Assembly: GCA_905178155.1 (NCBI GenBank)
Contig: CAJINV010000008.1
Span: 3,167,303-3,231,302, forward strand
Length of the DNA: 64,000 nucleotides
Direction: 5' to 3'
Source of the DNA: Amoebophrya sp. A120
Taxonomy: Eukaryota > Protista > Dinoflagellata
Positions 1-64,000 of the stretch are shown piece by piece (within the stretch, counting starts at the first letter, position 1; each line of letters opens with the position of its first letter). The notes under the pieces were generated by a model, which saw nothing but the letters and a program-made list of their open reading frames with translations, was not told the origin of the DNA and searched no databases. The position numbers were made by a program, and so were the translations under genes.

Positions 1-370
1 ACGCTGCGATTGGCCGGTCTGTTGTGACCGCAAAGGGTCTCGCTTTCGTGTTGTCGAAAGGGATGCACTCCGCCCGTGTTTGGCGTTGTCTCAGGCAATG
101 AAAGCGACGCGGCCTGTCTTGTCCGAGGCGACTCCTGTTGTTTGGCTTCCGCCCGGCATGGGGCACCCAGGGCGGACTGTTCTGCGTTGTGTCTTTGCGC
201 GTTTTTTTGCTAATCGTGATGCCATGAAATTGCGGCGCCCGTGTTTGCGCCCCCCTCGCCGTCGTCGGGGACGCGCCGCGGCGCGTCTCGCGTGCGGCCT
301 TGCCTCCTTCTGCTCGCCTGAGCTGTCTCGGCTTCCTTGCCTATCGCCCTTGCCTTGCGTTGCCCTGCCC

Positions 371-9799: not shown

Positions 9800-9874
9800 T
9801 TATAGTTGGAGCGATTTATAGCCAGTGTGTTTGTTCCTGTTGCTCCTGCCCTAAATGTTGAGCGCCCGCTATTT

Positions 9875-14010: not shown

Positions 14011-14201
14011 TATTAAAAAAAAAACCTTCACAATCACTTATGCACATTTTTGCAATACAAAAAAACTTTTGTCATGCGCAAAAATGCATCACAGTCAAGA
14101 GTTATAGGCGATTTCCTTTTGTGTTTTTGCAATATAAGAAAAATTTGTCACGCGAGACAAATTTCTGATGCGAGATTGTGGCGGTATTTTTTTCCTGGAT
14201 A
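14011..14201. mobile_element. Introner-like element, degenerate, upstream of the assigned ECM29 ATG
   Basis: TATTAAAAAAAAAACC..ACAATC / GATTGT..GGTATTTTTTTCCTGGATA; DR gaaat/ggaat. The spliced frame is unresolved. Confidence 0.6.
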
Positions 14202-14338
14202 GGAATAGCTAGAGCTTTACTAATATTGACGCAAACGCAATCAAAACAATCAAACTATGTTACAACCCGCTTTTCCCCGGTCGTGATCAACATCGTGTGA
14301 ATGTGTTGGTAGAACAAGTATCTATACATATACAAGAA

Positions 14339-17300
14339 ATGGACCAATATGAGCGGGTGTTACTCCGCCTGGTGGGCACGGAGGACGAAGCTTTTTCTGG
14401 TGTATGCTACGTGTTGCTGCCGATGGTAATGAGAAAGCTTCTGGAGCCGCTCCCCGCAACAGACGCCACCCCCGGAGCGACGCAGAAGAAAGTGATCGAT
14501 ATTCTAAACCACGTGCTGCAGCGCGCAAAGGCCTGTCGGACGATTTTCCTGCCTTTTTTCGGAATATTGGACTTGATCACCACCGAGATGCGCGCGGAGC
14601 GCCAGGGTGTGCCAAGTGCAAACCCCACGGGCCGGCTCCTCTTCAAGAACCTCTCGATGATTTTCCTAGGCCTTGCGATCGAGCGGCTAGAGGAGCTAGC
14701 TAGCTCCAGCAATATCGAGGCAGAGGCAAGTAGATTGGAGCGCTCCAATTCTGGCCACGGTTTTCTGGCGGACCTGATCAAAATCAACAAGCTTCCTACC
14801 GCGGCAGCAACCTTTTTCAAGGCAACGCGGACCGCGAGGACCGTGGCGAGTGAGCTGATCAAAGAGTTTCACCTGTTCCCGCGTGCGCACCAGCCCCAGA
14901 TCTTCCTGGCAGTGCTCCACGCATTCGCCTGCTTCTACCCGACCAACGTGGCTAGTTTGGTCTTTGGACTGACAAACCAGGCAAAGTCGGCCCTGCTAGA
15001 GATCGACGTCGTGGCACAACATCAGCAAGAATTGACTGGGGGCGAAACGGTTTGCGTATGCAACGAAACAAATGCTTTAATAAATACAGTTACACACGAC
15101 TATGTTGCAGAAGTAGTCAGAGAGGCCAGCTCCGTCACGCGCAATGAGATGTACTACAGGACCCTATGCTGTTCATGCCTTTCATGTTGCATGTTATTTT
15201 CCCGTATGATCTATGAACTATGATCTCCGCACTACACCAGACCAAGACGCCGGGAACCGGGCGTCTGGGCCTGGATTACGCCCCCCTCGTCCAGGGGCGT
15301 GAGCCATCTACCACGCCATAGTACCATGCAGACCATACCTGTGATGTAGTAGTTGCTGAATCTGCAATATTCATTGTGCGTCGACTGTAGCACTTTTTTC
15401 CTCGGATAACCGGCCTCAAAACCATTCCACGCGACCTGCACCGAAGTAGAATCCCAGACCGCAGGGTTGCTCGCCTTTCTAACGACTGCCCGCGAGTTAT
15501 CCTGAGTAAAAACGTAGCCACACCATAGTCAAGATGGGGAATCGGCTAGACAAATCCACAAGTTTTGGCTGTTTTGCATGACAAATTTGGATTCGTAGTG
15601 TAGTGCTGGTTGAGCTAGCTCTGCAGCATCACAGATCTAGCATACCATGCTGATTGGAGCTGCATGACAAATTGCAAAACACGACTAGAAAACGCTTCTC
15701 ATGGGGCTCCGCATGAGAAACATTTTCAGCATGCAGATTTGCATTACAACTCTGGCATGGGTACGTTTTTACTCAGGATACGAGTTCTTCTTGATCCCGG
15801 GGAACGCTATTGAAACGAAGCCGCCGGCAATCGCAGGCATGTCGTCTATGAAATGCAAAGATGTTTCTTGGGTCTGGAAATTTGTGATGCTGAAGATTGG
15901 CTGTATCACGAGCACGTGGACACCTCCCTTTTTATCGCATAAGCGAGCCTGACACGGATTTGCGCTGCAAGATGTTGGCTGCTCCGCGTGGAAAGTAACT
16001 GTCGTGCCTCTGTATGACAGGAAGGGGCTTGGGCTTCTGGGCAACGTGGTGCATGTTCACACCAAGAGGGTTGAAGCAAAGTGATGGCGCCGCGCTCGCG
16101 GCAACGTGTTGGTGTTGTATGACAGAGTTCCAAGAGCACTACGCAGTCCAGTCCCGAACTACGACTACACATTTTCAATGCATAGGCTCTGCCTCGTGGC
16201 AAGTTTGGAAAACGAAAATCGAAAAACTTCCCCCCAAGGTGTCGTCCCTCGTTCACGCCAAGACGTTGTTCCTGCAGTTTTGGTATGCGTTGGAAATATG
16301 TCTGGTTTCGGAAGGAGGCAATCTTGTGATGCGGATTCTGATTCTCATGCTGGAAGTGGAACTACGAAGAAAACAAAATAATAAATCTTTGTTGCATACA
16401 TAGCCAGTTATAAAAATGCGCGATTTTTGTCTCCCGGGCGGGGAGACACCTCCGGTCTTGTCAGCACCAGGACCCAGACATATTTCTTGCACTCGATATT
16501 TGCGACTCCAGCATCACGGCGCTCCTGGATTTGCGAGCTGTTCTTCCGACCACGGGGGCCGATGTTGCGGACACCAGTGCGGCGTCTGTAGATCGTCCGG
16601 CGGTAGGCACGAGTCAAAGTAAAGCAGACGAGGTCCTCTACAGTGCTGCTGCCGCGTCTCGCGACGAACCAGTTGAGAACAAGAAAGCGGAACAAGCTGG
16701 TGAGGACAGGGGGACAGAAGTTCCCGTGCAGCAGCAGACAACCCAGAATAAACCAACCCTGCTTGCAGATGGTGACCGCACAGGTGCTCTCCTTGCCCCG
16801 TCGTTGAGAACTAGTACGGGCGGCCCCGAGCAAGATCGTGATCAGGATTCTTTTGTGATGCACAACGCTGGTGGTAAAAACGCTGCCGCAGGAGCGGTCC
16901 TCGTGGCACCAAGTGCAGTGAACATTATCGATGTGGTGCATCATATCGTGAGAAAAAAAGGTTTCACTCTCACTGTAAGTAAGAATTTGTTTTGTTATTG
17001 TTCTTTTTGCAACTTTTGCATTACTAGTTCTTGAAACATGGCAAATTAAACTACACATATGAAGACCCTATCAAGACAAATGCGTCTGGGTCTGTCTCTG
17101 TGTTGCATTCTATGCATCACAAGTAAGTTCACCGTAAAACAGTTTTTTCTTCCGATACACCAGTGCTACCTGTGTTACCTGCTAGGCACCCTCGAGCCGT
17201 ACGAGCAAGTGTCGACGAGGAGCGAGGCCTTGTGGAAGCGACTTGAGCACCGGATCGAGGGTGTCGAATGCAAATATGTCTGGGGCCGGAAAGTTGTAAT

Positions 17301-20300
17301 GCTGGGCTGTGAATAGTGGATGGGATGCTCGGTACTGCACCGCCAAGCAAGCATAATGAGAAATATTCGCGCGGCTTTGCGTTGCTTTTTCCGCATGACA
17401 AGCTCTTTCTAAACGACAAGGGGGGTTCGTCTTTCTAAATGACAAGCTCTTTCTAAATGACAAGCTCTTTCTAAATGAGGACGACCACAGGGGGTTCGTC
17501 TCAATGAAATGAAATGACAAGGAAGATGATGGTCTCTTCTTGGACACGCATCACAAACTCTTCGTTTTCATACAGTCATACGCGACGAGCATGACAAACC
17601 TACTTGCATCCTTCCAGACCCAGACAGTATTTGCACCTGATAGAGAGCCTGGGCGAGCAATCGGTCTCGAAACTGCTACTCCAGCTGATCCGCGTCACCT
17701 CTCCGCAAGCGAGCTCCCGACTCAAAGCCCGCGCGTTGCAGATTCTGCAGCAACGAATCTTGCAGCTGCACCTGGACACACCTTTGCACGTCCTGCTCGA
17801 CGTCGCACCCGCAACCGAAACAAGCGACGACCTGCACGCTCGGGTGCGGGGCCAGGTTGGAGTCCCGGGAGGAACTACGTCGGCGGCGCCCGCGCCCGAC
17901 TATAATGCTGCACCAGCGGAAGTACAACAACACGCAACTACAATTTCCGCCGTGCGGCAGCAGGGGGACGAGCCGCAACTGGCGCAACACGCGGCCATTG
18001 CCGCTACGAGAACCTTGGTCTTGCGTGACGCTGTGGTGGCTTTCGTCCTCGAGTCTCTCGGTAGCACCGTGGTCACGGTCCGGGAGGCCGCTCTGAGCAC
18101 CCTTCTCAACATTGCAGACGTCGTCTTCCCAAAGGCCGCTGCTACCGGGTCCCTTTCCTCGGACGAGGAGCAGTGGAGCGAAAGCTTCGCCGGGGACACT
18201 TCTGCCGTCGGCGTAGCGGGAGGGGACGGTGGATCGCAGTTGTTCCCAGGGCGACCACCAAAAGTCGAGGACGAGGATCATGAGGACCCGAGCAACAAGC
18301 GCGCATCGGAGCTGTTGCACCGCACACTCCTCGGCATCGAGCACACATACTTCCCGACGGCAATCGTCGACGCGAATCTTTCCACCGCGCTCCGGCTCGC
18401 CTTCCGCGCCTTCGGCCGTCTCACAAGGAAGCAAATCCGCAACAGCCAGGAGGCGTTGCGCGTAGCGCCGAAGCTGTTTGCTCTGCTGAACGCCAATCCG
18501 GACGCGAGCGAGGAGATACTCGAAGCGCTGAACGGAGTGCTGCTCTGGTTTGCGGAGTCCACGTATCAAAAGGAAAAATCCCCCCTCCCCATATCGAAAC
18601 GAAGTTTCTGATGCTGGATTTCCGTACACAAATCAGATTTGTCTTGCAGTAGAGGACTGCAAGCATATGCCCAGCCTCAGTCGAGAGGTTTTGACGTAGG
18701 CGCCTAGCATGGCAAACGTGTATGCTCTAAGCCCAACAACATCACAAACCGCCTGCAAAATGCGGAACGATTTCTGGACTTGCCTTCATTCTTGCAAGAC
18801 AGACAGGATTTGAGGTCACAAATGCGCATCACAAATTTTCAGACGGATCCGCTTTCGTTATGGGGAGGGGGGATTTTTCCTTACGATACCACGTCCATAA
18901 AGACGCGCGCGAAGGCGGAAGATCCACCGGAGCCGGTAGGACGCGGCGCCGAACATCAACTAGAGGGGGCCGCCCCCGCCTCCTCGGCCGCCCGGAGCGG
19001 GCACGACAGGATGGGTCGGCGTGCGGCTTTATCCGTCCTGCTCGACCCCCTGCTTTCCCAGAACCCGAAGCCGCTGATCCGGAAGGAGGCGCTGCGCTGG
19101 GTTCTCCACTTGTTCCCGCCGGAGTCAGCGGAGTACCGCTTTTACGCCATCTATGGGAGTGTCAGGATTGAAATCTACAAAGTTGAAATAGCTTGTAATG
19201 CATAAAATCGATACCAGTTGGAAGCCCAATTTCCAAGCAGCGCATGACAAATTTCGGCACCGTCTACATCCACTTTGTCATGCTGTTTAGGGACGACAGA
19301 AGGCGCCTTTTCCTTTTGTCATGCTACTTTAGCAGCTCTATCGCAGACCCCAAAGAAACAGGCTGACAGTCGGCCTCACTTACTTTCCATCCCTGCAAGA
19401 GAGGCACTCGCACTTCATGCCTTGCAATTTATGCATGAGGAATTATTTCAACTTTTTCGATTTCAATCCTGACACTTCCATACCGTCCAGCGATGCGGGG
19501 ACCAGGACCCCTCGGTCGCCAGCATGGCCGCGAAAGCCTGCGACGCCAGCCGCAAGTGTCCCACCGTGAACGAGATGATGCGTTTTCTTCGTGAGGGAAG
19601 CATTCTGCTGCCGTCAGAACTGGCCAAGAAGTGGCCCGAGGTGCCACAGATTCCCAAACTGGAGAAGGGAAGCCTCGTATGGCTTGCAAATAGGTCTGGG
19701 TCTTGAAAGTTGGAACTTCTGATGCTAACTTCGGACTCCAAAAAAATTTGTATTGTATGACCAGCAAGAGGAGTCTAGCTTGTGCTTCGCGGGGAGGGCA
19801 TTTGTCATGCGGAATATTAGGTATCTGGAAGCAATCAGAAGAGAGACAATCTGTGATGCTAGGGGATACATCACAGACGTCACGGGTCATGTAAAATCTG
19901 CATGACAAGTTGCAACCTTCCAGACCCAGACATATTTGCATTTGATACCGCGCCTTCCTCGTCGAATTCGTCGTCGCCCACTGCGTATGCCTTGCAAATA
20001 TCCCTGGAGGTCTGGAAAGAGGAAGGGTTTGTCATGCTTGTCTGGCATGACTGAAGAGATTGTCATGCGTGTGGTCCAAGAGGAGACCGCTCTTTTGCTT
20101 GTCATGCAATAAAACGCAGTTTTTCATGCGGAAAGCGCAAGATTACGTCGCGCAAATAAGTTGTGCTTATTTCTCATGCTTGGCTGTGCATTACGATTAC
20201 AGACGAGAATTCACTATTCACAACTCAACATTACATAGTTTTTAGTTTCCAGACATCCAGGGATATTTGCATTTGATACTGCGAGGCCGAGCCGTATCCA

Positions 20301-23300
20301 ACAGAAAAGCTGCAGCAGGCGCATAGTTGTACTAGAAAATGAAAATTCATCGTGCATGTGTGTTGCTGCTTTATTTCGCCTGTCAGCGCCAAAATTTTTG
20401 TAAAAATAGATGCTGGGCCGCTGCAAGGAAGACACCACAAGAATTTTCCATCGTCCGATAATAGCACATGCACAGTCAGATGTAGAATGATAATGAATGA
20501 ACGTGCTGTGGACCAGCATGACAAAGATGAAGATCGCTGCCCAAAAATAAAAAATGTGTCCTCTTTACCTTTGGGCATCGACCAGCCAGCAGTGGATTTC
20601 GTGTTGCGGCGCAAAAAGCAGAATGAATGACAATTTCACTTTTTCTCTGGTACTTATAGGCGTCACGTGCGTTTCTGTGCTATAAGCCTTCAACAACCAC
20701 GTTTGATATGGCTGCAGATGATGGAGTGCTGGGAGCAGCGAGACCTGTCGACGCCGCCGAGCAGGACGGAGAGAGCACCTCCTCGTGCAAAAGTGGAAGC
20801 AAGACCACACTGAAACGCCCCCGTGCGGACTCAGTCGTGAACACGGCCGACCACGTCGTTGCTGGAGCTCCTGCCCGCCCCGGCGCACTAGAAGGTGCCA
20901 CACAACTCGAAAGAGCTCCCGAAGCTGCAGGAATTGCAGGCGCTGATGCGCCACGGGCGGCCCGTCCTCAGCACCAAAAAAAGTCCGTGGTCTCCGTGCA
21001 GGATGCCAAAGTGCTGCTTTCCCTGGCCGATGCCTCGAGCTCGTTGAAAGCCTATCGGCTCCTCTGGGAGTTGGCGCAACACGACTTGCATCGGGAATTC
21101 GCTGAACGTGTGGAATTCTTCGCAAACAAGGCTTTCCTCTCCGACAACGCGCTGGACTGGGCCCACTTTCTACAGGATATCCTAGACAAGTACGATTCAC
21201 CTGCTCCTGTCGAGGTTTCTGCTCAAGTCGGTCCTCCTGCTCGCGCTGCAGTCGAACCTGAGCTGCAGCTCTTCGGAACCGACCAGCTAGAAGCGGCGCA
21301 GGAGCTCGCTGCTAAGCGGAAGACGCTGTTAGCAGAACTGTATGGCCGCTACTACGGACGAGACGAACTACTAAAAACGCCGAGCTATGCATTGCAAATA
21401 TCGATCTGGCTCTGCAACGATAGTACTAGACTTGTCATGCTGACCTCCTCCCATGCTCCCGCGAATCCTCCATGCTGCGCTCCTCCCATCCTCTGTCATC
21501 CGCATCGCGAAGTAGCAGTGCTCCTTTGTAGTGATGTAAAAACGCAATTTGTCGTGCGCGTTGCATATTCCTCGCTCAAAAATTTGTGATGCTTGGCTGC
21601 GTACTGCGGTCAGTTTCTTTCGGATTCGCGACATGGTAGCAAGACAGCTTTCAAGAAGACCCAGGTATTATATTTGCATTCGATACGAGCGGTCTGTCAG
21701 CTACAACTTCGCGCGCCGCCGCGGCTCCAGCGCCCTCCTCCGACGATTTCCTGGGCGACACCGTGCTCCTTCTCCTGGCTGTCCTCTATCATGAGGGAAA
21801 TAATGCCTCCTCCCTTCTATGTGGAAAACGTACAAAAAGCGTGATTTGTGTTCCCTGTTCGTGTGCTCACGCAAATCCAAATGTTATGTTGTCCTCTGTC
21901 TTGCATAAAATTCGGCAAGGAAGGCCTGCTGGACAGGCAATCATCTGTAAAAATGCGGTTAAGCCTACAGAACAGTAGGAAGGTCTACCGTTCTGAAGAA
22001 GTGCTAGACCACATCTAGAAAGAACCTAACGAGGCTTGGAATGCGTCTACTATATTTTCCCTTGATGCAAGAGATGGTGCAAGAATTTGTGTACAGGCAT
22101 AGATGATGCAGCATCAGAAATTCCCGTTTGGGGAAGGGGGGATTTTCATCTGAACATCCTCGTGGTTCCCGTTTCAGGAAGCCAAGCCACGGTGACGGAG
22201 CGCGACACTGTGCCCACGGGCCAGAAGATTTTGGACAAGCTTGCGGCCTCGAGCCTTGACTCAACCCGGAAGCTCGAGGCGTATGAAAGCCTCAGGTTGG
22301 AAATTCTCAAAGTGAAAATAAATTTGTAATGCAAAAAAACGACTCCAGTTGAAGCACCATTTCTAGTCGGCGCATGACAAATTTTCCTGGCACTCAAGTC
22401 TTCGTGTCTGTCATGCTAGTTAGGCAAAGGTGTGCCGTTCTCTCGTGCTAATCTATCAGCAGCCCAATTCTACTGAACCCGTAGAAGCACAGTAGTCGGC
22501 CTCCGTAGTTGCGTTCTCTGCAATACAGTCTTTTTGGTGTCGCATTTTATGCAATTACATACAAATTATTTTCACTCTGAGAATTTCCATTCTGAGGCTC
22601 TCATAAGGCGGCCACCGTACTGGTAAGGAAACTCGGCAGGGACACAGTGCTCCAGGCCCTGTCGAAGAAGATGATAGACCCAATCCCGGCCTCATCTACG
22701 AGTAGTGGCGCGGCAGGGTCGACTATGAAAGTGCACAAGAATTCCCCCTCCCCCTCATTTGTCATGCAAAACCCCAAATACAGGCTGTGCCTCTTGGCAC
22801 TGTTTGCATGACAAGTTCTGGTAGCCCAAACAGCACTAGACTCTAGCGTACATTTGTCATGCAAAACCGGCATTCGTCTTGCGCTTGCCCGATGCTTGTA
22901 TTGCCGTTCATGCTATACAAATGATGGGCAGGGGGAGTTGTGCATTGTCATATCGACGAGGACGACCAAGAGTGTGATTCCGGACGACAAGCTGGCCATC
23001 GGTCTATCGAGAGGAAAAATCCCCCCTCCCCATATCAAAACGAAATTTCTGATGCTGGATTTGGATACACAAATCAGATTTGTGTTGCACAAAGGCATGG
23101 CGGCCAGATCCGCAGGCTAGCTGAGGGCGTATGGGTCTAGTTGCTCAGCATGGCAAACGGCCTCCCTTTAGGCCCAACGGCATGACAAATCGCCTCCATA
23201 ATGTGGCGGAAGCTTCTGCCCTTGTCTTCTTGCAAGACAGATGTGATTTGTGACCTCAAATCAGCAACACAAGGCATACCTTTTCAATATGGGGAGGGAG

Positions 23301-26300
23301 AATCTTTCCTCTCAATACGGTCCGGCAGGGAGCTTCCGCGACGCCTTCGCCTTCGGTGCTGTGCGCTTCCTCGCTGTCTGTGGCGACGTGGAGCGGGTTA
23401 TGACAGTGCACAACTCCCCCTCTTCGTCCCCCTCATTTGTCATGCAAAATATCCAATTCACCCTTTGCCTCTTGGCCCTGTTTGCATGACAAATTCTGGT
23501 ACTAGCCCAAATAGCACTATACAACTCCAGTGCAAGTTTGTCATGCAAAACCAGCATCCTTGCTGGTGCTTGTATTGTCGTTCATGCGATACAAATGAGG
23601 GGGAGGGGGAGTTGAGAACTGTTATACGGGTGCTGGAGATTAGCCAGCGCGACCATTGGCGCGACCGCGACGACGCGGTCTGCGTCGTCGCCCTTGCGCT
23701 CGTGCTGGATGCGGGGCTGGACATCTCGACAATTTTGTCGCACATGGGCGAGGGCGAGGCAGGTGATAATATACTTCCAAAGGGCCAACAAGAACCTCCT
23801 CCGCATCAACAGAGCGGCACTACAGCAGCTGACAGTACAACTTCTACAGCACCTACAACAACGTCTGGCACGAATGATAAAATCACGACATCGGACATCC
23901 ATCAAAAGGGGGTCTCTGTAGTGCCCCTGAGGCATGGCGTCGTCTGGCTTCTGTGCCGGCTGAAGCACGAGCAAGAGAAGTTGCATGGCTCCTTTTTCTC
24001 TACTAGTGCCTCACGTCAGACTTCCGCCTCTACTCCAGATCCCGGCTTGTTAAACGAGGCCACCGTGGAACTGCTGGCCCGCATTTTCGTCCGGGGTCTG
24101 CACCTGCCCGTCGCGAACCTGTTTGTGGCGGATGCGGCAGCGAAAGGCCTTGTCCGGCTATTCGCACTCACGTTCAAGAACGACACGACAAATCAGGCTC
24201 GTCCTGGACGACGTGCTGCTGCTGCCAGCAGTACTACTTGCCTCACAAAAACTTCCGCTTCCCCACCTGTCGAGCCAGGTGGTGAACTCGAAGGAGATGC
24301 AGGGACTGGCCCTGCTGCTCCTGCGGGCAGCACCTCGCTGGTTGTCAAAACCATTTTCGCCTCCGTGCAGCAGCGGACACACAACGAGAGCGCCCTGGTC
24401 GCCAAGGAGGAGGACTCCGTGCTTGCGAAATCCAAAGACAGTGCCGTTCTCGCGGCGCGGGAAAGGCAGAATGAACTGAAGGAGATGCTGTTTCTCTGCC
24501 GGCAGCTGGGAAACTTGAACTTCATCATTGCGTGCTTGGACCAGCCCACGGGCAGCTCCGTCGCGCTCGCGAGCATGGCCGCGATGCATGAGGACGCTGC
24601 GAGTTCACGGCTCGCGGAGGTCGCCAAGAAGCTCATGAACCCGAATAGCACTTTATCAAATGTAAAAATGTCTGGGTCTGGAAGAATGCGCGATTTGTCA
24701 TGCAGCTTTTCCATGACCCATGAGGTCTGGAATGCAGGACCTAGCATGACAGATTCTGTGCGATCTTTCTCATGCCTATCCTGCATGAGAAACTACCTCC
24801 CGACTTGGTCAAAATTGGGCGACTTTTGGCAATCATGCAACACAGATTTTTGCATGCTGCAGATTTAGCATGACAAGTTGCAATCTTCCAGACCCAGACA
24901 TTTTTACAGTTGATACACTTCCGCTATGAGCAACGGCTCGAGTTCCACCGGTCCGCAGCTCGCCGGCGTATTGACAACCCTGAACGCGCTGATGAGCATG
25001 TCCGAGAAGGACCAGCAGCGCCTGGCGGACCTGATGGATCCGCAGAAGCGCAAGGAGGCGGAGGAAAAGCAAGAAGCGGAGAAGCGCGCCCGCGTGGCCC
25101 AGGAGGCCAGCGTGAGCCAGCTCAAGAAGCAGCAACAGACGGCGTCGGTGGCCGGGTCGGGGTTCTTCGACGCGCTGACCATCCAGGCCGCCGACGTACG
25201 GTCCCTGGCGCTCCCGGCGCACCTTCGCGCGGCGGTAGCCGAGAAAAGGCTGGTGCTGCACCAGTTTCCGCCGTACTTCTTCCACAGTAACGGAAAGCTC
25301 CGGGAAGTCATCGTTTCGATATCATACGTAAAAACGACCCCACCCCGTAGTCAAGCTGGGAACTCTGCCAGTACATAAACGACCCCAAACACGCCGTACT
25401 TTAGTCAAGTTGGGAACTTAGCAACACAAACCCAGAAGCTTTCGGAGCAACGCATGACAAATTCCAGTCCGTAGTGTAGTGCAGTTTAGCAAGAGCAGCC
25501 GCACGACAAATCCATCTGCTCATCCCGTTTACAGCATCACAAATTCCAAAACGCAATTGGAAATGCCTCTCAACATGGAGATGCGCATTACAAGAGATGC
25601 GCATTACAAATCTTCCTGTGGTCGCAAATCTGCATGACAACTATGGGGTGGGAGAGTCTTTACTCAGGATATTCGATCTCCCTGAACTACTTCGGGATCG
25701 AGCGCGTGCAGGACATCGGTCCCTGGCCCATATGCACTGCAAATATGTCTGGGTCTGGAAACTTGTGATGCTGAGTTGCGTACCATGAGCATCATGAGGA
25801 GGCCACAACTCTTGATGGCTCAGCATGAAAAGTTTCTGAGCTTCTACTTCTAGGTACTATTGCCTACTCTGCATGACAAACTTCTGCGTTTCTGCATCAC
25901 ACAAAAATGGCGGCTTTAGGTAAAAGCGTGCGTGACAGACTCGAGAGTTATCTTGCTAGCCGAGCAAGACAAGTAGTCCCGCATTCTTCCAAAACGCCAG
26001 ACAGATTTGCACTGGATAGCTCAAGGTGTACCGCAACCTTGTGCGGATCGGGTTGAGCCCATCGGTGTCTCGCGTGAGTTTACGGGAAGCCAGCTGCCGG
26101 TGCCTGACGCAATTGCTACGGTCGGGCAGACGCTGGAGGGAGCTGGAACCCGAGTGGCAGGCCCTTTGGGAGGCGGTGATCCAAGTCACCGACGACCTCG
26201 AACCGAAAATCGAGGCCGTCGCCGGCCCACTATCACGCACTCTGCGATCCCTGACCATCCGTCTCTGCAACAGCTCCGGCCAACTGGCGTCGCAGCGCTT

Positions 26301-29300
26301 TGACGCCCCGCCGGGGTATTACACTAAAAAGTCCCCCCCCGATCCCGGAAGCGGGAAAAAATAATGTTTGTGTATACATAACAAGATTTTTAAATGCGAA
26401 ACTCTTTCGGTCTTTTCCTCTGAGCTACGAGTAGTCTTTCTACTGCAGGAGAACCTTCTATGCGTATAATTTCACAAGGATCGCTTGCATGACAAGTGCC
26501 GCGCTTGCTGGGCCTGGAGTCTTTTGCAGTACAAATTTTTGCTATTCACCATTGAAAATCTGCGACGCTGATACATGAAAGAGGGCGAGCGTTCCCATAA
26601 TTGGGAACTGGAACAAGCTTTGCCATACAAAAACAAACGCTTCCACGTTCTGGGGTCGTGGCGGCACTTATTTTCCATATTTATACGAGGAACCAGCTAT
26701 TTTCTCAGGGCGCAGCGAACGCCACCAGTAGTACTGGCGTTGCGGCGAGTGGTTCTTCCTCCGGAGCACCTGCAGCGCACCACCAGCGCCAACAGTACAT
26801 TGGCTCCGCGGAAGTGCAGGCGGCTCTGTCGAAAACACTCCCCATGCTGCTGCAGTTCCTGCACCTGTACCCGCACGCCCGGTCCCTGTGCTTCGATGTG
26901 ATCCACGAGGTCGCGCAACTCACGGCCAACGCGTCGTTGTTGAAGCCCTTTCTGCTGGAGCTGGTGCCGCTTCTTCTGGAATCACTGAACGCACTGGAGC
27001 ACCGCAAGGTCGCGGAGTACCAATGGGACTTCAACCGGGCAGGCGCCGGCGAGAAATACGAACAAGCCCGCATCGCGGCGTCCAAAGACTCACCCAGCTT
27101 CCGGCTGCTGCGGCGCCTGGTGCCCAGTTTCGACCGGCCCGCCCTGTTGGAGCTGTCCGGGACGCTGCGGAAGTTAATGCGGCAGGGGGTGGGCTCCAAC
27201 ACGAGGTGCGGGGTCTGCGATTTCTACTCCATGCTGGCCGCGGAGATGTACCGTGAGGAAAAATCCCCCCTCCCCATATTGAAAACGTATGCTCCTAAAA
27301 ATTTGTGATGCTGATTTGTGGCCACAAATCCTGTCTCTCTTGCAAGGAGGCAAATCCAAAGAATTCGCAGCCTTAGGGAGGCGATTTGTGATGCTGTTTC
27401 ACGTACATGGCAGGCCTCTGTCATGCTCAGCGCCTAAGTACAACAAAACACCCCTACGCAGGCTGCGGCTTTGCTTGTAGTGCCTCACTGCAAGACAGGG
27501 CTGATTTGTGTACACAAATCCAGCAACAGAGGTTTCCGCTTCAATATGGAAAGGGGGGATTTTTCACTTTGATAAGATGCCGCATGTGTTCTCGCAGCCG
27601 ATCGCGTTGCAGACTTTGCGGGCCATTGCGAGCTCGCTGGTGGACGAAAGCATCGCGGTCAAGTCCGCAGCAGCGTTATTGTGACGAAAAATCCCCCGCC
27701 CACCCCATGTCGAAAAGTAGAATAAGTTTTGTGATGCTAGATTTGCATACACAACTCGGACTGTATTGCTAGAAGAAGGCCAAGAGACGCAGCTGCGGCC
27801 TCGTTTGCGCACCATTTCTCTACTCGATGTGTCCCTCTACTTCCAGTTGCTTCCTGTCATGCTGAAGGCGCAAGGCTTTGGCTTTGTTTCCCACGCCGGC
27901 CAGCACTCCAGTCCACATGTCTCTTCCGTTCTAGCTGGCATGACGACGTGACTTGCGATTTTTGCAAATCGTGCTACACCAGTCCTCCTCTGAGTATGGG
28001 ATGAAGGAGGGACTTTTCGTTGCAATACGCGTCCGCGTTTGCGAGTATCGCCAAACGGGTCGACGACAAGACGAGCCTGGCAGAAATCATCGAGAAAAAG
28101 TATCAGAATGAAAAATGCCCCCACCCCCGAACTTGAAAGCATTTGTATTGCAAACCTTTCCAAATGAAACATTCGCCCTCTTGCACCTATCAGCATCACA
28201 GGTTTCCAATCGTGAATAGCGAAAATTTGTATTGCAAAAGACCCCAGCAAGAGCGGCGCTTGTCATGCAAGCGATGCGATACACGCCTAGACTCTGCATC
28301 AGAAAGATTCATACTCCTTTCATGCATGACAAAAAGGTTTCATTTGGAAACTTCGCATCACAAATTTTTGCAATTTGAGGGGTGGGGGGCACTTTTCACT
28401 GTAATAAAAAGCTGCTGCCCGGAGCAGCAGACTTTAATGATGATGTTGAAGACGTGAATGTGGACGACGCGGCGCGAGGAGTAGGACTACCAACGCTATC
28501 AAGTGCAAAAATGTCTGGGTCTGGAAGAATACAAACTTGTGATGCGCATTCCAGAACACAGGAAAATCTCTCATGCATAGGCAGCAAAAGTTGCCCACTT
28601 TCTGTCACCAAAATGCGACTTGTCATGCGGATTCGGCATTGCGGACGCTTCTCGAATCCTGTGATGCTAGAGCTTCCATGCCAGACCTTCTGCGTCATGC
28701 AAAAACAGCATGACTCTTCCAGACCGAGACACTTTTGCATTTTATAAACGCCCAAAAAAGGCCAAGCGGAGCCTGCTGTTGAAGTGGAGCCGGGGACGAA
28801 ACAGGTGTCGACAGTTCTCCGCCTAGACGAGGGCGGCCGAGCAGGAGAGAACCCGAAAGAGGTCCGCGGTGAAGTAGAAGTAGATGTCGCAATGTCACTG
28901 GACCAACGCGGGCCGGGCAGTGGTATGATGGGAACAAAAAATCCTCCCCATATTGAAAAGCCTTACTTACTTCTGAAAATTTGTGATGCTATGGCTAATT
29001 TCTGGCCACAGACCGTGCCTGTCTTGCAAAGGGGCAATTCCAGAGAGTCCGCCTCAGTACGCCGGCGGTTTAGAATTATGCAGTCGCGCCCATAGGGCAG
29101 GCCCCTGCTATAATGCAGCTATGGGCCTACGCGACTAAAACACCCCTTCGCAGCCTTAGCTTCTACCTGCGGTCGTGCCATACTGCACACAAATGATCCA
29201 GCAGCAGAAAGCCGCGCTTCAATATGGGACATCAGCGGGGGGATGATTTTTCATTTTGATAAGTGAGCACCGATCTTTGCTAAAGACCTCGGCATCCGAC

Positions 29301-32300
29301 CTCGGGTTTCTCACCACCTCGTATCCTGATGAAAAACGTCCCCACACCAGAGTCAAGATGGGAAACCTGCTAGACAGATCAGCCAGCCTTGGTTGTCTGG
29401 CATGACAAGTTTCTTGTCCTCGTCGTGTAGTCCTGTTTAGCTAGTTCAGAAGCATCACAGATCTAACATGGCATGCTGATTATAGCATCACAAATTCAAA
29501 AACACGAATAGAAAACGTTTCAAATAGGGCTCCGCATGAGAAACTTTTTTGGCGTGCAGAATTGCATGACAGCTCTGGGGTGGGGACGTTTTTACTCAGA
29601 ATACCTCGGCAAAGGCTTTGTCCGAGATCCACCTATCAACTGCAAATATGTCTGGGTCTGGAAAGTTGTGATGCTGTCTGGCCAATCATGTGGACGTCTG
29701 CATTGACAGCCAAGCATGACAAGTTTTGGAGTTGCTATAGTCTTGTCTATCTGCATGACAAGCTGCGTTTCTGCATGACAGAGAAGTGTGGCTTTTGGGT
29801 GGCGCGCATGACAGACTTGATAGCCATGCCAGACTAGCACGACAAATCTCGCAATCCCCCAGACCCAGACACTTTTACTTTTGATACCACCGCCGAGGGT
29901 GCGATTTGCGTTCGCTCCAATTGCGCGACCGCCTGTGCAGCCAGTGCTTTTTTCACCAGTTCCACGCGGTGGACCGGGTCAAGCAAGAATGGACCGCATT
30001 GTGGCTGGAACTGGGCTTTTCTGTCCGGCAAGCCCTTACTCTCGAGCCCGTCGTCACCGTTTTAGCCCGCGCGCTGCAATCGCAGGACCGCGCAACGCGG
30101 ATGCAGGCCTGTCGCGCCGCGGTACAACTCTCGCAAGACCTTCTCGCAGGTCGTACCACCACTGGTTCAGGAGACGAGGACGCGAATAAGGACCTGCAGC
30201 GGCTGGCAGCGGCGCTGGCGAAATACGAGAGACATGCAACCCCCCCCTCGGTCGTCATGGTCATCGTCGCCTTTAATATTATTGGTAAATTATTTTTTCG
30301 CATGCAAAGATGCAATTCCAGGGCAGTACTACCTAGCCTTCTAACTAGCTGCGTCGTCTTGCATAGCACTACAGGCCGTACCTGGATCTATTTTTGTCAT
30401 GCAAACGCTACAATTCTATCCTTGTCGCGATTGCCGCGCATCACGTCCTGCAAAGGGAAGGGGAGTTGTGCACTGTGATACGAAAAGTGTGGAAACCTAC
30501 AAGCTCGCGTACGTCGGGGCAAGTGTGGTATTGCGCGCCCTGGTCACGCTGCTGATGCACCTAAATGTAGGAACAAATATGACATTCACCGGCGCAAGAA
30601 GCGCAGATGAAGCGGCGGGCGACAAGGACCACGAAGTGGGAGGTGAGGACTCAACGTTTCTTGCAAAAACCGCTTCTTCCCCTGGTGCTCTTGGCACGCG
30701 GCAGGTGCAGGCCTGCGTGGAGATGGTGAGGTCGACGCGCGTGGAGGATACCGATCGCGCGGAAGCGCTGTGCATTCTGACCGACATGGTCGCGAAACTG
30801 GGGCGCGGCATCGCACGGGAGATTCCCGTGGCCGATCTGTACAGGTGGATCGAAACCAAGCTGGACCAGAAAGAGTATGGTGTTCTCAAACGTTACATTC
30901 TCAACTGTAACATGAATCTGTAATGCAAGAATGGCAAAAGCCAAAGGGGGAAGATTGCAAAACTTGCATTACAAATGCCACGCTGATTTAGGTGGTGTTT
31001 AGCCCTTCGCAAATTTGTCATGCGAAGCAGCTTGATCTTGTTGATGATGATGGTAGTTTTGCATCACAAACTCACGTAACAGTTGAGAATGTAACGTTTG
31101 AGAACTCCATAAAGAAGTCGAGCTCCGCCAGGAAGCAGAGAAGGACTTTGCCTTCGTGGCGAAAGTTCGTGGACGCGGCCCGGCCGAGAAGCTGCTTTCG
31201 CCGGTTTTCGATCTCTGGGCCGCGGTCCTGGACGGCCAAGACGTATCAAATGTAAAAATGTCTGGGTCTGGAAGAATCTAAACTTGTGACGCTGTCTCTT
31301 GATTCGAAAAGGATTTGTATTGCATGACCAGTAAGAGGAGTAGATTTTGTGCTCCGCGGAGAGGGCATTTGTCATGCGGAATGGGCATCAAGAATCCCTC
31401 CAAAGCCCTGTGATGCTAGGGCATGCATTACAGGCATAATGGGTCATGAGAAATATGCATGACAAATCGCGCACTCTTCCAGACCAAGACATTTTTACAT
31501 TTGATAAGACGGGGGAGGTGACGATTCTTATACGGTTGCACGACCACCAGGAGTTGCATTTTTATGCATTCTTGAAAATGTCGATCTCAATCTGGAAAGA
31601 TGCACACTTGTCTTCATGCGCATTTCTGATTTTTGCGAAGAAAATCTCTTCAATGCATAAACAGCACAATAAGGTACTACCCAAATATTGGCACTTCATT
31701 CTATCGAGCAAAGAGAAGATTACATGTTCTCTCGCTGCAAAAAATTGATGTTCTCAAAGCCTGTGAAGATGCCAGTAGGGCTCCTGCATACCACGTGACC
31801 TTCAGCGTCGTGCGAAATGAGCACCCGACCTCGACCAAGAAAAGCTGCACTATTCTTCCAGAGCCAGACACGACATTTGCATTTGATCAGTACCGGCACC
31901 ACGACCTGCCGGGGGGACCACGGGGCCGCCTGCCGCAAGGACGACGCAGCAACTGCTCGGCCGCTATCTCCAAGCGTGGCTTCGCGAATACGCACACGCC
32001 ACCGGGACTCTGCGCGTGGCGATGCTGCGCGCGCTGCGGCGTATCCTGCTCAAGCATTTCTCAACAGTCCGCGTCGGGGGCGGAGTAGATGTTCATACAA
32101 CTGGTGCCAACGTGGACCACAACGCCGCAGCTGCCACTGCCCGTTTTTTCGAAAGCGATTTTTACGGCGAAATGGTTCCAAGCAGTGGAGCAGGACAAGG
32201 CATCATGACCACGCCGTCGAGTGGAACAAGAACGACCGGCAGAGACCTGCTTCTCCAAGTTGCAAAGATCGCCCTCAACACCGTCAACGAAGATTGGTCG

Positions 32301-32789
32301 AGAATCCGACGCGCGGGCCTGATCCTGCTCGCCGCCTTCGTTCGAGTAGACGTAGACCAGTTGTTGCGGACCTGTGTGCAGTTGGAAGAGTTGGAAGCGT
32401 TCTTGCTCACGCTCGAGCACGCTGAGACAAACAACCTGGACGAGGCGCTTCACGAGGATCTTGAAGAAAGACAGGCACTGCAAACTTTGAACGCGTTCAG
32501 AAATATGCATTGCAAATATCGATCTGGGTCCGGAACGAAGAGTGCAGGTTTGATTTGGCATGCTTGTCTCACATGACAGTTGGATCTGTCATGCGTGAGC
32601 ACGCAAAAAGCCTCTTGCCTGTCATGCAAAAGTGCAGTTTTTGCCAAACAGAAAGCGAAACACAAAGATGCCCAGAAACTCTTCGGGCGTGGCTGCGTAT
32701 CGCGATAGGGTCAGCATTCACGGACTAGCAGCCCAATTTTCCAGATACAGACATATTTGCAATTAATAAGAAATGAACTTCGCGGATAA
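14339..32789 (+). CDS. ECM29: Proteasome adaptor/scaffold ECM29 (HEAT repeats). 34 exons split by 33 non-canonical inverted-repeat introns, ~2801 aa. An extra 5' exon from ATG 13959 is possible.
   Basis: MDQYERVLLRL...KKVIDILNHVLQR and LREASCRCLTQLL...LWEAVIQVTDDLEPKI...LTIRLC resemble ECM29. Removing each element plus 5 nt leaves 8406 nt (2802 codons), in frame at every junction and ending at TAA 32787-32789. Confidence 0.85.
15057..15408. mobile_element. IR introner (old, family F-like)
   Basis: TIR matches at 15 of 20 positions. DR is decayed (ttgcg/accgg). Removal plus 5 nt restores the frame. Confidence 0.65.
15498..15780. mobile_element. IR introner family C
   Basis: Perfect 19-bp TIR TATCCTGAGTAAAAACGTA; DR cgagt/cgagt. 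Confidence 0.92.
15847..16184. mobile_element. IR introner family A (degenerate)
   Basis: TATG...CATA ends with GGGTCTGGAA; DR tcgtc/ggctc; frame restored. Confidence 0.7.
16284..16498. mobile_element. IR introner family A
   Basis: AAATATGTCTGG / CCAGACATATTT; DR tttgg/tttgc. Confidence 0.85.
16944..17157. mobile_element. IR introner family F
   Basis: TATCG..AGAAAAAA / TTTTTTCT..CGATA; DR catca/cacca. Confidence 0.85.
17262..17642. mobile_element. IR introner family A, with an internal 18-bp tandem duplication
   Basis: TGCAAATATGTCTGGG / CCCAGACAGTATTTGCA; DR gaggg/gagag. Confidence 0.85.
18564..18888. mobile_element. IR introner family B
   Basis: ~30-bp TIR with AAGGAAAAATCCCCCCTCCCCATA; DR ccacg/ccacg. 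Confidence 0.93.
19152..19482. mobile_element. IR introner family D
   Basis: TIR TATGGRAGTGTCAGGATTGAAATC; DR ccatc/ccgtc. Confidence 0.92.
19678..19947. mobile_element. IR introner family A
   Basis: TGCAAATA.GTCTGGGTCT TIR; DR cctcg/ccgcg. Confidence 0.9.
19986..20278. mobile_element. IR introner family A variant
   Basis: TGCAAATATCCCTGGA.GTCTGGAAA TIR; DR ctgcg/ctgcg. Confidence 0.92.
20295..20684. mobile_element. IR introner (degenerate)
   Basis: TATCCAACAGAAA / TTTCTGTGCTATA; DR agccg/agcct; frame restored. Confidence 0.75.
21386..21685. mobile_element. IR introner family A
   Basis: TGCAAATAT / ATATTTGCA; DR cgagc/cgagc. Confidence 0.9.
21787..22156. mobile_element. IR introner family B (degenerate, right end ACA)
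   Basis: C-rich/G-rich TIR remnants; DR tcctc/tcctc. Confidence 0.82.
22282..22605. mobile_element. IR introner family D
   Basis: ~40-bp imperfect TIR; DR aggcg/aggcg. Confidence 0.92.
22724..22952. mobile_element. IR introner family E
   Basis: TATGA..GTGCACAA..TCCCCCT TIR; DR tcgac/tcgac. Confidence 0.92.
23005..23317. mobile_element. IR introner family B
   Basis: TATYGAGAGGAAA...CCCTCCCCATAT TIR; DR cggtc/cggtc. Confidence 0.93.
23399..23626. mobile_element. IR introner family E, close relative of 22724-22952
   Basis: TATRACAGT...CAACTCCCCCTC TIR; DR cgggt/cgggt. Confidence 0.92.
24654..24915. mobile_element. IR introner family A
   Basis: 32-bp TIR TATCAAMTGTAAAAATGTCTGGGTCTGGAAGA; DR cactt/cactt. 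Confidence 0.95.
25320..25671. mobile_element. IR introner family C
   Basis: GTAAA..CCCACCCC TIR; DR ttcga/ttcga. Confidence 0.9.
25731..26018. mobile_element. IR introner family A
   Basis: TGCAAAT.TGTCTGG TIR; DR gccca/gctca. Confidence 0.88.
26317..26685. mobile_element. IR introner family G (degenerate)
   Basis: TAT...ATA ends; interior similar to 28101-28406 in reverse; DR cgggg/cgagg. Confidence 0.8.
27249..27574. mobile_element. IR introner family B, inverted relative to 23005-23317
   Basis: GAAAAATCCCCCCT TIR; DR agatg/agatg. Confidence 0.92.
27677..28027. mobile_element. IR introner family B variant
   Basis: TATTG..ACGAAAA.TCCC TIR; DR agcgt/cgcgt. Confidence 0.88.
28101..28406. 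mobile_element. IR introner family G
   Basis: TGAAAA.TGCCCCCACCCC TIR; DR aaaag/aaaag. Confidence 0.92.
28497..28746. mobile_element. IR introner family A
   Basis: TGCAAAA.TGTCT.GGTCTGGAAGA TIR; DR aacgc/aacgc. Confidence 0.92.
28924..29261. mobile_element. IR introner family B (degenerate)
   Basis: AAAAATC.TCCCC TIR; DR agtgg/agtga. Confidence 0.85.
29322..29603. mobile_element. IR introner family C
   Basis: AAAAACGTCCCCAC TIR; DR cctcg/cctcg. Confidence 0.93.
29634..29886. mobile_element. IR introner family A
   Basis: TATCAA...TGTCTGGGTCTGG TIR; DR ccacc/ccacc. Confidence 0.92.
30224..30480. mobile_element. IR introner family E (degenerate)
   Basis: Right end GGGGAGTTGTGCACTGTGATA; DR cgaaa/cgaaa. 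Confidence 0.85.
30876..31111. mobile_element. IR introner family H
   Basis: 33-bp TIR TATGGWGTTCTCAAACGTTACATTCTCAACTGT; DR aagag/aagaa. Confidence 0.93.
31244..31506. mobile_element. IR introner family A
   Basis: TATCAAATGTAAAAATGTCT.GGTCTGGAAGA TIR; DR agacg/agacg. Confidence 0.95.
31563..31888. mobile_element. IR introner family A (old, DR lost)
   Basis: AAATGTCG...TCTGGAA / TTCCAGA...CGACATTT. Removal plus 5 nt restores the frame. Confidence 0.7.
32504..32768. mobile_element. IR introner family A, last ECM29 intron
   Basis: ATTGCAAATAT TIR; DR agaaa/agaaa; the join reads ...FRNELRG*. Confidence 0.9.
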
Positions 32790-33049
32790 GATCAACATCC
32801 AACTAAATGAAACGAAGGCCAGCTCCAAAAGAAGAAGAACGCCCTTAGCACTTCACTTTCCCAAAAAATAAATGCACGACAAAACAGAGATCTGACGGCT
32901 CCACTCCTTTTTTTTTCAGACTGAGTAATATTACCAGCCGGACAACTATAACCACAGAGTCAACGCCTTGGCATCAATTGTGATGAATGTCGCGAAGAGT
33001 CATGATTGACATCGTTGCTGCTGCAACGAACAGCGGAGGAATTTGAGTC

Positions 33050-35120
33050 AGAAAAATCTAAGACGAATATTGATATCGATCCCAAAGAACAATGATCACC
33101 GGATCCGCTTTTTTCTTCCGAAGCCGATCGATCATTGAAGGATTGCGGATATTGATTGTTGGTGGATTCTTTGTCTTTCGATTTTGTCGATGAAAATTCC
33201 AGAACTTGTGGCTCTCTCTGTCCGTCACAACCGAAAAAAAAAATCGCTAAAGTTATCGGATCGATTCTTCCGGATCAAGCGGATATGTACCAGATTCCTC
33301 GATAAGATTCTGGTCGATGAAATTCATTTCATTTCCATAATTCAATCTTGATTGAGATTCTGTCCAAGGAAGAGAAAATGGAAAAAAGAATGACAGAGAA
33401 TCTGAGTCGGAAAAAAGAATGACAGAGAATCTGAGTCAAAATTCTTCATCCATTTCGAATGATAATTCTAGTCGTTGGATTCGTGAATCATGGATCAGTT
33501 TTCTGAAAAAAATTGTTATAGATTTATTTCATCCCATATCTGATATTGATTCAGATCAGGAAAAGAATAAATAGATTCAAGGATAATTGGAGTCCAGGTT
33601 CTGGATTGATGCCGACACACAAATATTAATTTTTAAAAATTTTATTTCTCATGATGGGAGTCTGGATATTTCCCTCAAGAAATTCCGATAAAATCGGAAA
33701 AAGAATATCTGAAAATCTCTGAAAAATATTCTTGAGAAATTTTGCAAGAATTTTCGTCCGATCGTCTCGTCACAATCGAGTCAGGTCGGGTTTCGAAGTT
33801 TTTTGGAAATTTTTCGGTCATGTTTCGAAATTTTCGAAATTTTATTTTTCTAAGTTTTTCATGGGTCTGTAAATTTTCCAAATATGAAATCATGGAAAAT
33901 CGGAAACACAAATATGATTGAAATCCGATCGGATATATTCTACAGAATTTATATCGTTATTATTTTTCTATAATTTCTCAAGCAATTTCATTTCCAAAAA
34001 AATCTCCTAAAATGAAACAAAAGAAACAATGAGATCGAAAATGATATGAGAATGATATTGGATAATCTCGGATGGGATTAAAGAGATTGACAATCTAAAT
34101 CATTCATCATCTCATGATTCATCGATCTGAATCAATCCTCGATATTCTCATGATGAGATGGTATGGAGATCAATCCTCTTTTTTTTTCGTTAAAAATTCT
34201 ATTTCTCTTCCATCGATTCATTCTTCCGATATTCATGTCTATTCGAGAGAGAGATAGGGAGGATAATTCTTGCGATATTATCAACAGATAGAATTCATTT
34301 CATTTCGTCCATTCTGACATATATCCACTCCAATTTTTATTTTCATATCGACGAAAAATTTCTTTCTTTCTGGTCATGTCTGGGCATGACTCAAATTGTC
34401 TCATAGGCCCAATCCGAGATTATCCATCTTTGTTTCCATCTTCATTTCTCTTTCTCTCAAAAGATAAAACTTTTCGTCGATTTTATCTTTCTCTCAAAAG
34501 ATAAAATCGACGAAAAATTTCTATCATCAATCATTCTTGATTCTCTCTGTCTCATACAAATTTATGACACAATCTATATTTCGACAACGAGAAAGAATGA
34601 ATCATTGCCGAAATTTTTGGAAACGAAAAATCAACATGAGAACAACATTATTCTTATTATGGATTGAGATTTTTTTTGATTCATCAATATATTCCAATGT
34701 TGATAATGGAGAACCCAAAAATTTTTTTCGAATAACCTTACTCCCAACCCATCCTGAAGATTTGATATTTCGAAAAACATATATTCTTGCCTATCTCTCC
34801 AAAAGAATGATGTGAAGATTAAGAGAATCAAATCAAACATACGGAACATTTTCACCTCTCATCTGAAGATCTGTGAATTATTTGTGCCCACTCTCCTGCA
34901 CCGACAATACCCACACCAACGAACTAGAATGGTTGGACAGACCGATCGATAATAATGACCATGACCGGATGTCGGGCTCTACCCCACATGGATGCATGGA
35001 ATGAATGAGGTCATGGATGCGTGAACCCATCAAAAATCTCCAATACATTCAGTGATTGGATATCCGAAGCCACAGAAAGATCACTATGAATGGAATCTCG
35101 ATCAATCTCGAAATCTCATA
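33050..35120. other. AT-rich non-coding tract with strong GpC depletion
   Basis: By eye, about 8 GpC versus about 45 CpG in 33301-34860. Contains a 29-bp tandem duplication (33380-33437) and a 20-bp-stem hairpin (34471-34516). Confidence 0.75.
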
Positions 35121-63838: not shown

Positions 63839-64000
63839 TGTAGGTGAGATCAGAATGCAAATCTGTATCGATCCACATTCGCACCCTGATTCCAGATGAA
63901 ATGACGCCACAAAATCCACGATCTGAAATGACATGATCATCTGTAGTACCACGCTGGTTTGCTGCACATTCAGCAAATGAGCATGATGATGATGATGTTT
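63839..64000 (+). repeat. 3' LTR (partial)
   Basis: Identical to 58013-58174. Confidence 0.95.

Follow-up and report, generated by a model that had tools for sequence, protein, structure and literature searches.

The introners described from the genome of Amoebophrya sp. A120 are introns of many families with a mean length of about 240 nt. They carry inverted repeats (TAT, seven variable nucleotides, then at least three A), are flanked by direct repeats of 3-5 nt, do not have GT-AG borders and are supported by RNA-seq (PMC7789003). The same paper, whose summary is repeated in PMC11453091, marks the A120 intron borders as unknown/variable and reports spliceosome proteins and the U2, U4 and U6 small nuclear RNAs (snRNAs; U5 in A120), U1 snRNA being undetected (PMC7789003). 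About 30,000 such introns have to be removed in A120, with borders that the original paper left undefined (PMC7789003). In a later survey single A120 genes contain tens of introner introns, most of the rows (in 22 of the 58 rows of the dataset) being terminal inverted repeat (TIR) DNA elements of unknown superfamily (PMC12130899). Nonconventional introns of euglenids are released as circles (PMC6221363, PMC11282704). Here these systems are compared with the gene of the proteasome adapter ECM29, in a stretch of 64,000 nt of the A120 genome (the window), whose coding region is split by 33 inserts that are very likely removed from RNA, each with 5 nt of repeat, and probably with cuts at a fixed position.

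The inserts were located by a scan for inverted ends and direct repeats, and by a relaxed search or by eye for seven weak-ended ones (inserts 1, 3, 4, 13, 21, 29 and 32). All the 33 inserts of the original prediction (214-390 bp, TAT...ATA, 5-bp direct repeat, a few deviant ends) were recovered, spanning positions 15057-32768. The left end is TAT in 30/33 and the right end ATA in 31/33, the deviant ends being TGT (start of insert 6), TAC (start of inserts 22 and 29), ACA (end of insert 13) and ATC (end of insert 32). A is found at end positions 11-13 in 26-29 of the 33 inserts, i.e., the published form TAT + 7 nt + AAA. The direct repeat is 5 bp long: it is perfect in 19/33 inserts, has one mismatch in 11/33, three mismatches in two (inserts 3 and 32) and four in one (insert 1). 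The mean identity of the repeats is 0.87 for a length K of 5 and at most 0.34 for K=2-4 and 6-9. The inserts resemble miniature inverted-repeat transposable elements in that they have TIRs and target-site duplications (TSDs), and are short, non-coding and multi-copy.

When each insert plus 5 nt is deleted from 14339-32789, 8,406 nt are left, i.e., the 2,802 codons first proposed (2,801 amino acids and the stop), with no internal stop. The probability of finding 33/33 downstream exons open under independent random frames is 4.5e-10. Frame alone cannot prove this length, since stop codons are likewise absent from one insert+2 model, one insert−1 model and several insert+8 and +11 models. A GT...AG pair of exact length exists for 1/33 inserts, and frame-keeping GT...AG pairs exist within 5 nt for 5/33 and within 12 nt for 13/33. 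Nearby canonical GT-AG splicing, available for at most 13 of the 33 inserts within 12 nt, was rejected; one rule for all inserts and a non-GT-AG mechanism are supported.

Among the 14 exons scanned, exons 1 and 22 match the Pfam families PF13001 and PF24492, in agreement with the proposed ECM29 identity, and the other 12 give nothing above the curated cutoff. Exon 22 is 100% identical to a protein of Amoebophrya sp. A120 (CAD7958390.1 / GSA120T00005976001). Because of this identity, and because the inserts match the published A120 introners (same TAT + 7 nt + AAA ends, RNA-seq support), the introner phenomenon at this locus has been described before, both as a type and for this genome; the link to Amoebophrya is stronger than was thought at the outset. 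The annotated protein (1,920 amino acids) begins at what is residue 902 in the joined protein and spans junctions 9-33. The insert+5 length is present in it at 23/25 covered junctions, the exceptions being two extra residues at junction 21 and a read-through into insert 33. Inserts 1, 2, 3, 5, 6 and 8 are placed by the open frame, neither the RNA-like contig described below nor the annotated protein supporting them. Two outside ECM29 homologues were found. The protein was expected to align with ECM29 across the junctions: the alignment with P0003 (E=2e-10) is ungapped over junctions 22 and 23, an insertion covers junction 21 and the remaining junctions are in unalignable regions. The gene model can be corrected at three points: a start annotated about 900 amino acids too late, the read-through into insert 33 and the two surplus residues at junction 21.

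It must be noted that the exon between inserts 10 and 11 has just 11 nt (20284-20294); it is retained in the annotated protein and would be hard to recognize by exon definition. A possible 34th insert (14011-14201, 191 bp, TAT...ATA, repeat with one mismatch) lies a short way upstream of where ECM29 starts and may belong to the 5' untranslated region; its high DNA depth suggests a repeated element.

Contigs of four sequencing runs, which lose rare variants, were mapped on 13900-33100. Run X3 was taken as RNA by guess and run X1 is DNA-like. The contig evidence comprises 16 of about 20,500 pieces and 15 of 918 joints, X3 joints not being among the latter. In one X3 contig (record 12, 4,415 nt) the length missing from 4/4 intervals over inserts 18-32 is exactly the sum of the insert lengths with 5 nt added per insert, and the removal length is thus insert+5. 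The +2 and +8 models drift by up to 45 nt from these intervals. Insert+2, +8 and the other frame-equivalent lengths are excluded over inserts 18-32 by this arithmetic, and the length behind the 2,802 codons is set by the contig. Abutting X3 pieces are shown for insert 18 alone, inserts 19-32 following from contig arithmetic; further X3 pieces stop at the borders of inserts 4, 7, 11 and 33, on one side. As to retention of the inserts in mature RNA, the X3 contig lacks inserts 18-32. In the raw RNA runs X9 and X10 (2026), 12 and 166 reads matched the stretch, each over part of its length only, which is uninformative.

The original prediction had considered excision from DNA as an option. Internal eliminated sequences (IES) of ciliates are transposon-like and are cut precisely from DNA in the somatic nucleus, leaving one repeat copy. 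Amoebophrya is not known to have a separate somatic nucleus. The existence, at one stage of the life cycle, of a template free of elements would agree with the transposon-like anatomy of the inserts and with the single repeat copy left, X3 not being on record as RNA. However, X1 contigs (0.8-2.1 kb) run unbroken over inserts at 40-47x (e.g., 15740-17459 and 20252-22311), i.e., at single-copy depth, and DNA-level excision is unlikely because DNA contigs pass through the inserts at about 43x. No element-free genomic junction was seen in this one DNA-like run (one sample, contigs only). Moreover, X3 depth is zero at 13900-14540, upstream of ECM29, the inserts decay and stay in place over times sufficient for a divergence of their repeats, the end constraint described below is strand-specific and follows the direction of transcription, and published A120 introns are supported by RNA-seq against the genome (PMC7789003). 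Excision from DNA is thus highly improbable, and removal from RNA, summed over the other readings, very likely.

Perfect repeats hide the position of the cut, mismatched repeats reveal it. At insert 32 the downstream X3 piece starts at 31893, i.e., at base 5 of the right-hand repeat, and no intron other than one going from start −1 to end +4 fits this. The contig piece ends 16499, 20685 and 30869 require position 5 of the right-hand repeat, and 26689 requires position 3 of the left-hand repeat. The annotated residues at junctions 9, 20, 26 and 32 agree with this 1/4 register. From these mismatched repeats and five contig ends, the 5' cut is likely 1 nt upstream of TAT and the 3' cut 4 nt downstream of ATA; the mRNA would keep the first four bases of the left repeat and the fifth of the right one. 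Removal from RNA in a variable or other register within the 5-bp repeat, the 1/4 rule being an artefact of few junctions, would agree with the legend of Fig. 3 of PMC7789003 (splice sites variable relative to the hairpin), with the mixed gain mechanisms and TSDs of 2-5 nt of A120 families in Dataset S2 of PMC12130899 (22/58 rows), and with the departure of the annotation at junction 21. Nevertheless, the five informative contig ends and the four informative annotated residues all fit 1/4, and perfect repeats may lead an aligner to place junctions arbitrarily, mimicking variability. A variable register is therefore regarded as improbable. No published statement of the A120 intron register or mechanism was found in the literature searched, whose figures, like further papers, may hold one. 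Against that literature, the fixed register, the orientation independence and the U+2 constraint may be new.

Related elements were sought by a motif scan that matched 156 loci (478 kb), the 77 loci listed being contigs of one other assembly (JACKZZ01). By inverted ends alone, 341 related elements were found, 243 of them with a perfect 5-bp repeat, other repeat lengths accounting for at most 25. Removal of the element plus 5 nt gives a coding-like frame at 102/201 related junctions, vs. 12-21 for +3, +4, +6 and +7. The same rule is obeyed over eight inserts by a minus-strand gene of the window, in which the first stop is met at codon 529, beyond the last junction, while the +4 and +6 models stop at codons 147 and 135. 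At least 70% of their length is matched among the 341 elements by 21 of the 33 ECM29 inserts, the best with up to 95% identity. Element families insert in both orientations, including within ECM29, and a significant orientation bias was found in 0/12 families with at least four members. The motif TGT[CG]ATGC occurs 71 times in ECM29 inserts vs. once in exons, and in 300/341 related elements, in most cases at 30-45 nt from one of the ends; it is likely a transposase binding site. Two motif matches on viral contigs were considered as chance. One element of 1,104 bp (locus L022, 359-1462) has a perfect 5-bp repeat and a GC-rich repetitive interior, with no evident transposase open reading frame.

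In the 1/4 register the donors of the 33 ECM29 inserts are GT (15), CT (8), TT (5) and AT (5), only T at intron position +2 being constant; the acceptors are free, with AG in 3/33. The GT (GC) donor and the AG acceptor that mark U2-type (major) introns are thus not the rule in the inserts (15/33 GT, 3/33 AG). A GT donor, an AG acceptor, a branch point and a pyrimidine tract are normal requirements of the spliceosome, and U+2 is the hallmark of its donors. In the second assembly, with loose strand calls (235/301 elements), the 5' T (intron +2) never deviates, while the mirror 3' A deviates nine times (p=0.004); such calls are right at 12/14 called ECM29 junctions. With strict calls (110/262 elements), right at 27/27, the counts are 0 and 5, and within the window 0 and 1. 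Deviations at positions 2 and 3 of TAT in the second assembly are symmetric with respect to the mirror positions (3:2 and 5:3). U at +2 thus appears to be the one strand-specific signal found. The symmetric ends provide a T tract and a TGAT-like motif in both orientations. The best strand-biased k-mer is CCAC (56:22, p=1e-4 among 116 4-mers, uncorrected for family structure). A drift to G at +1 (left G in 4/5 ECM29 inserts with a differing position 5, but in 0/6 related loci) was rejected, and an invariant branch A at −7 is not supported (three deviations vs. five at the mirror position). On folding, a closing stem is predicted for most ECM29 inserts, with z <= −3 in 23/33 (12 shuffles each).

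The best explanation may be stated as follows: (i) the ECM29 inserts are non-autonomous transposon-like elements of the A120 introner kind, likely removed from pre-mRNA with one repeat's worth of sequence; (ii) their terminal hairpin would bring the intron ends together in either orientation; (iii) U+2 would mark the 5' cut, the intron starting 1 nt before TAT (N-U-A-U); (iv) the 3' cut, 4 nt past ATA, would be set by the distance from the stem and not by AG; (v) the elements would have spread via a putative DDE-type transposase binding TGT[CG]ATGC. With a 5-bp repeat and the 1/4 geometry, the original coding sequence would be restored at any insertion site, which would explain why elements flood genes. 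As to the machinery, we give an even chance to a relaxed, U1-independent spliceosome, the 5' end being read as N|U and the 3' end set by a hairpin ruler. T is second in all the top donors of Table S4 of PMC7789003 (9/9 in A120 and 9/9 in A25), the 5' T is strand-specific, and spliceosome proteins and snRNAs are reported. In a further Amoebophrya, whose introns are canonical, U1 is retained (PMC12005148), in keeping with a link between the loss of U1 and the introns of A120; PMC13693241 does not mention introns.

Several results weigh against this explanation. X3 is called RNA by guess and contigs drop rare variants, and the register comes from one fully and four partly informative junctions among the 16 pieces. 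The loose strand calls contain errors, the deviant elements may share ancestry, and one terminal deviant left uncalled (L017) leans the other way. A preference for G at +1 was not found (48/151 elements), nor one for AG acceptors, and no strand-specific branch-point or pyrimidine motif was found in 184 oriented elements. The bias to G at intron +5 seen in ECM29 (11:0), a possible spliceosomal signal, was not replicated (45 vs. 58 of 151) and was rejected. No sign of selection for RNA pairing was found, G-U and A-C mismatches in the stems being about equally frequent (141:157). The predicted end pairing is below 0.5 in 6/33 inserts, four of these being in the contig-skipped stretch. Finally, an autonomous partner or transposase was not found among four long candidates in the 478 kb.

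These results must also be read for a removal from RNA that does not involve the spliceosome, in which a hairpin-reading endonuclease would cut at 1 nt on the 5' side and at 4 nt on the 3' side of the stem, the exons then being joined by a ligase, as proposed here by analogy with euglenid nonconventional introns. The dyad-symmetric ends, the use of both orientations with 0/12 families biased, the lack of AG, G+1 or branch signals in the elements, an unpaired part that is longer on the 3' side, which is also the case in euglenid introns (+4..6 pairing with −8..−6), and the undetected U1 snRNA of A120 (PMC7789003) are in favour of it. On the contrary, the sole asymmetric constraint is U+2, as in spliceosomal donors, there is no G-U bias, and inserts 21, 26, 29 and 32 lie inside the skipped stretch although their stems are weakly predicted; no candidate enzyme is at hand, no search for one having been made. 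The nuclease-ligase pathway is the main rival, at less than an even chance. The machinery reading a TAT/ATA-capped stem, as first proposed, is upheld as to the non-GT-AG borders and the single rule, and less so as to the stem: the cuts are likely outside it (1 nt on the 5' side, 4 nt on the 3' side), the terminal A of ATA can change, and the four weak-stem inserts are skipped as the others.

A further, tentative suggestion is that A120 has a third kind of nuclear pre-mRNA splicing, without GT, AG, U1 or a strand-specific branch point, which would measure from the hairpin and cut at N|U 1 nt before it and 4 nt after it. It is conceivable, and somewhat doubtful, that such splicing would be non-spliceosomal, or rebuilt enough to count as a new chemistry. 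If true, any 5-bp-duplicating TAT...ATA element would be a perfect intron in both orientations from the moment of insertion. Whatever the machinery, if the register and U+2 hold, the intron ends are predicted exactly, and lariat-vs.-circle mapping and minigene tests become straightforward. The fixed register and U+2 would also account for silent insertion in both orientations.

Table. Features of the window. Insert coordinates are those of TAT..ATA; for every insert the likely intron goes from start −1 to end +4. RNA-like contig: run X3. Arithmetic: contig arithmetic.
Feature	Position	Strand	Description	Evidence
ECM29 coding region	14339-32789	+	proteasome adapter; 34 exons; 2,801 amino acids after 33 insert removals	
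Exon 1	14339-15056	+	ECM29_N domain (PF13001)	E=7.3e-09
Exon 22	26691-27248	+	HEAT_ECM29 (PF24492); 100% identity to CAD7958390.1 / GSA120T00005976001	E=7e-16
Insert 1	15057-15408	+	352 bp; repeat 4 mismatches; inferred boundaries	frame
Insert 2	15498-15780	+	283 bp; repeat perfect	frame
Insert 3	15847-16184	+	338 bp; repeat 3 mismatches	frame
Insert 4	16284-16498	+	215 bp; repeat mismatch position 5	RNA-like contig piece starts 16499
Insert 5	16944-17157	+	214 bp	frame
Insert 6	17262-17642	+	381 bp; TGT start	frame
Insert 7	18564-18888	+	325 bp	RNA-like contig piece stops at 18558
Insert 8	19152-19482	+	331 bp	frame
Insert 9	19678-19947	+	270 bp; repeat mismatch position 3	scan, annotated protein
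Insert 10	19986-20278	+	293 bp	scan, annotated protein
Insert 11	20295-20684	+	390 bp; repeat mismatch position 5	annotated protein; RNA-like contig piece starts 20685
Insert 12	21386-21685	+	300 bp	scan, annotated protein
Insert 13	21787-22156	+	370 bp; ACA end	relaxed search, annotated protein
Insert 14	22282-22605	+	324 bp	scan, annotated protein
Insert 15	22724-22952	+	229 bp	scan, annotated protein
Insert 16	23005-23317	+	313 bp	scan, annotated protein
Insert 17	23399-23626	+	228 bp	scan, annotated protein
Insert 18	24654-24915	+	262 bp	RNA-like contig pieces abut, 267 nt skipped
Insert 19	25320-25671	+	352 bp	annotated protein, arithmetic
Insert 20	25731-26018	+	288 bp; repeat mismatch position 3	annotated protein, arithmetic
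Insert 21	26317-26685	+	369 bp; weak TIR; GT..AG in inferred register; annotation +2 residues	relaxed search, contig
Insert 22	27249-27574	+	326 bp; TAC start	annotated protein, arithmetic, homologue alignment
Insert 23	27677-28027	+	351 bp	annotated protein, arithmetic, homologue alignment
Insert 24	28101-28406	+	306 bp	annotated protein, arithmetic
Insert 25	28497-28746	+	250 bp	annotated protein, arithmetic
Insert 26	28924-29261	+	338 bp; repeat mismatch position 5	annotated protein, arithmetic
Insert 27	29322-29603	+	282 bp	annotated protein, arithmetic
Insert 28	29634-29886	+	253 bp	annotated protein, arithmetic
Insert 29	30224-30480	+	257 bp; TAC start; weak TIR	annotated protein, contig
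Insert 30	30876-31111	+	236 bp; repeat mismatch position 5	contig
Insert 31	31244-31506	+	263 bp	annotated protein, arithmetic
Insert 32	31563-31888	+	326 bp; ATC end; repeat 3 mismatches; sole junction fixing the register alone	annotated protein, contig
Insert 33	32504-32768	+	265 bp; annotated protein reads into insert	RNA-like contig piece stops at 32498
Probable membrane-protein gene	39718-41695	-	two clear inserts, 40744-40953 and 41416-41695; apparent canonical intron between them	
SPFH/Band 7 domain exon (PF01145)	43893-44489	-		E=2.4e-07
Gene with CEP76 peptidase-like matches	53448-56769 (gene ~53000-57160)	-	8 inserts; canonical-looking AG acceptor near 57146	
Copia-type long terminal repeat (LTR) retrotransposon	58013-64000		stop interrupts frame near 63119	RVT_2, SH3, gag-pre-integrase matches

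Outside ECM29, the interval 9467-9804 contains a GC-rich, almost perfectly palindromic block that does not resemble the TAT elements and whose units are spaced by 112 bp, and an AT-rich (34% GC) low-complexity tract, which differs from the surrounding DNA, lies immediately 3' of ECM29 (33000-35000). The probable membrane-protein gene on the minus strand appears also to contain a divergent palindromic insert near 39721-40004. The insertion of the Copia element is recent, because no difference separates its two LTRs (100% identity over the 162 nt that the window covers); as a mobiliser of the inserts this element was rejected, its LTRs being of the ordinary TG-start type.

The comparison of the ECM29 inserts with known systems leads to the following picture. 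They resemble ciliate IES by their transposon-like anatomy and by a precise removal that leaves one repeat copy; however, IES are cut from DNA and the evidence here points to RNA. The introners of Micromonas, Aureococcus, Polarella and Fritillaria are also transposon-derived, and their TSD lets splicing restore the coding sequence, but they keep specific dinucleotides (GT/GC-AG, AG-AC/AT) whereas the ECM29 inserts keep only T+2 (PMC11282704). With euglenid nonconventional introns the inserts share inverted-repeat pairing, TSD-like repeats and the absence of GT-AG (PMC6221363, PMC11282704). Euglenid introns have stems at +4..6/−8..−6 and Y|R junctions (PMC6221363, PMC11282704), while in the ECM29 inserts neither this pairing nor Y|R junctions were found: +2 pairs with −5, the 5' junction is N|U, the 3' end is free and the junction bases are otherwise unconstrained. 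The TIR DNA introners of A120 have, by automated calls, splice sites of mixed origin and TSDs of varied length (22/58 rows; PMC12130899), which differs from the 5-bp rule observed here. With the A120 introners as first described, the ECM29 inserts share the genome, the TAT + 7 nt + AAA ends, the repeats of 3-5 nt, the occurrence in families and the probable absence from RNA (PMC7789003). There is no difference in kind between the two; what is proposed here in addition is that the 1/4 register is fixed, that the repeat is strictly of 5 bp, that orientation is indifferent and that U+2 is constrained.

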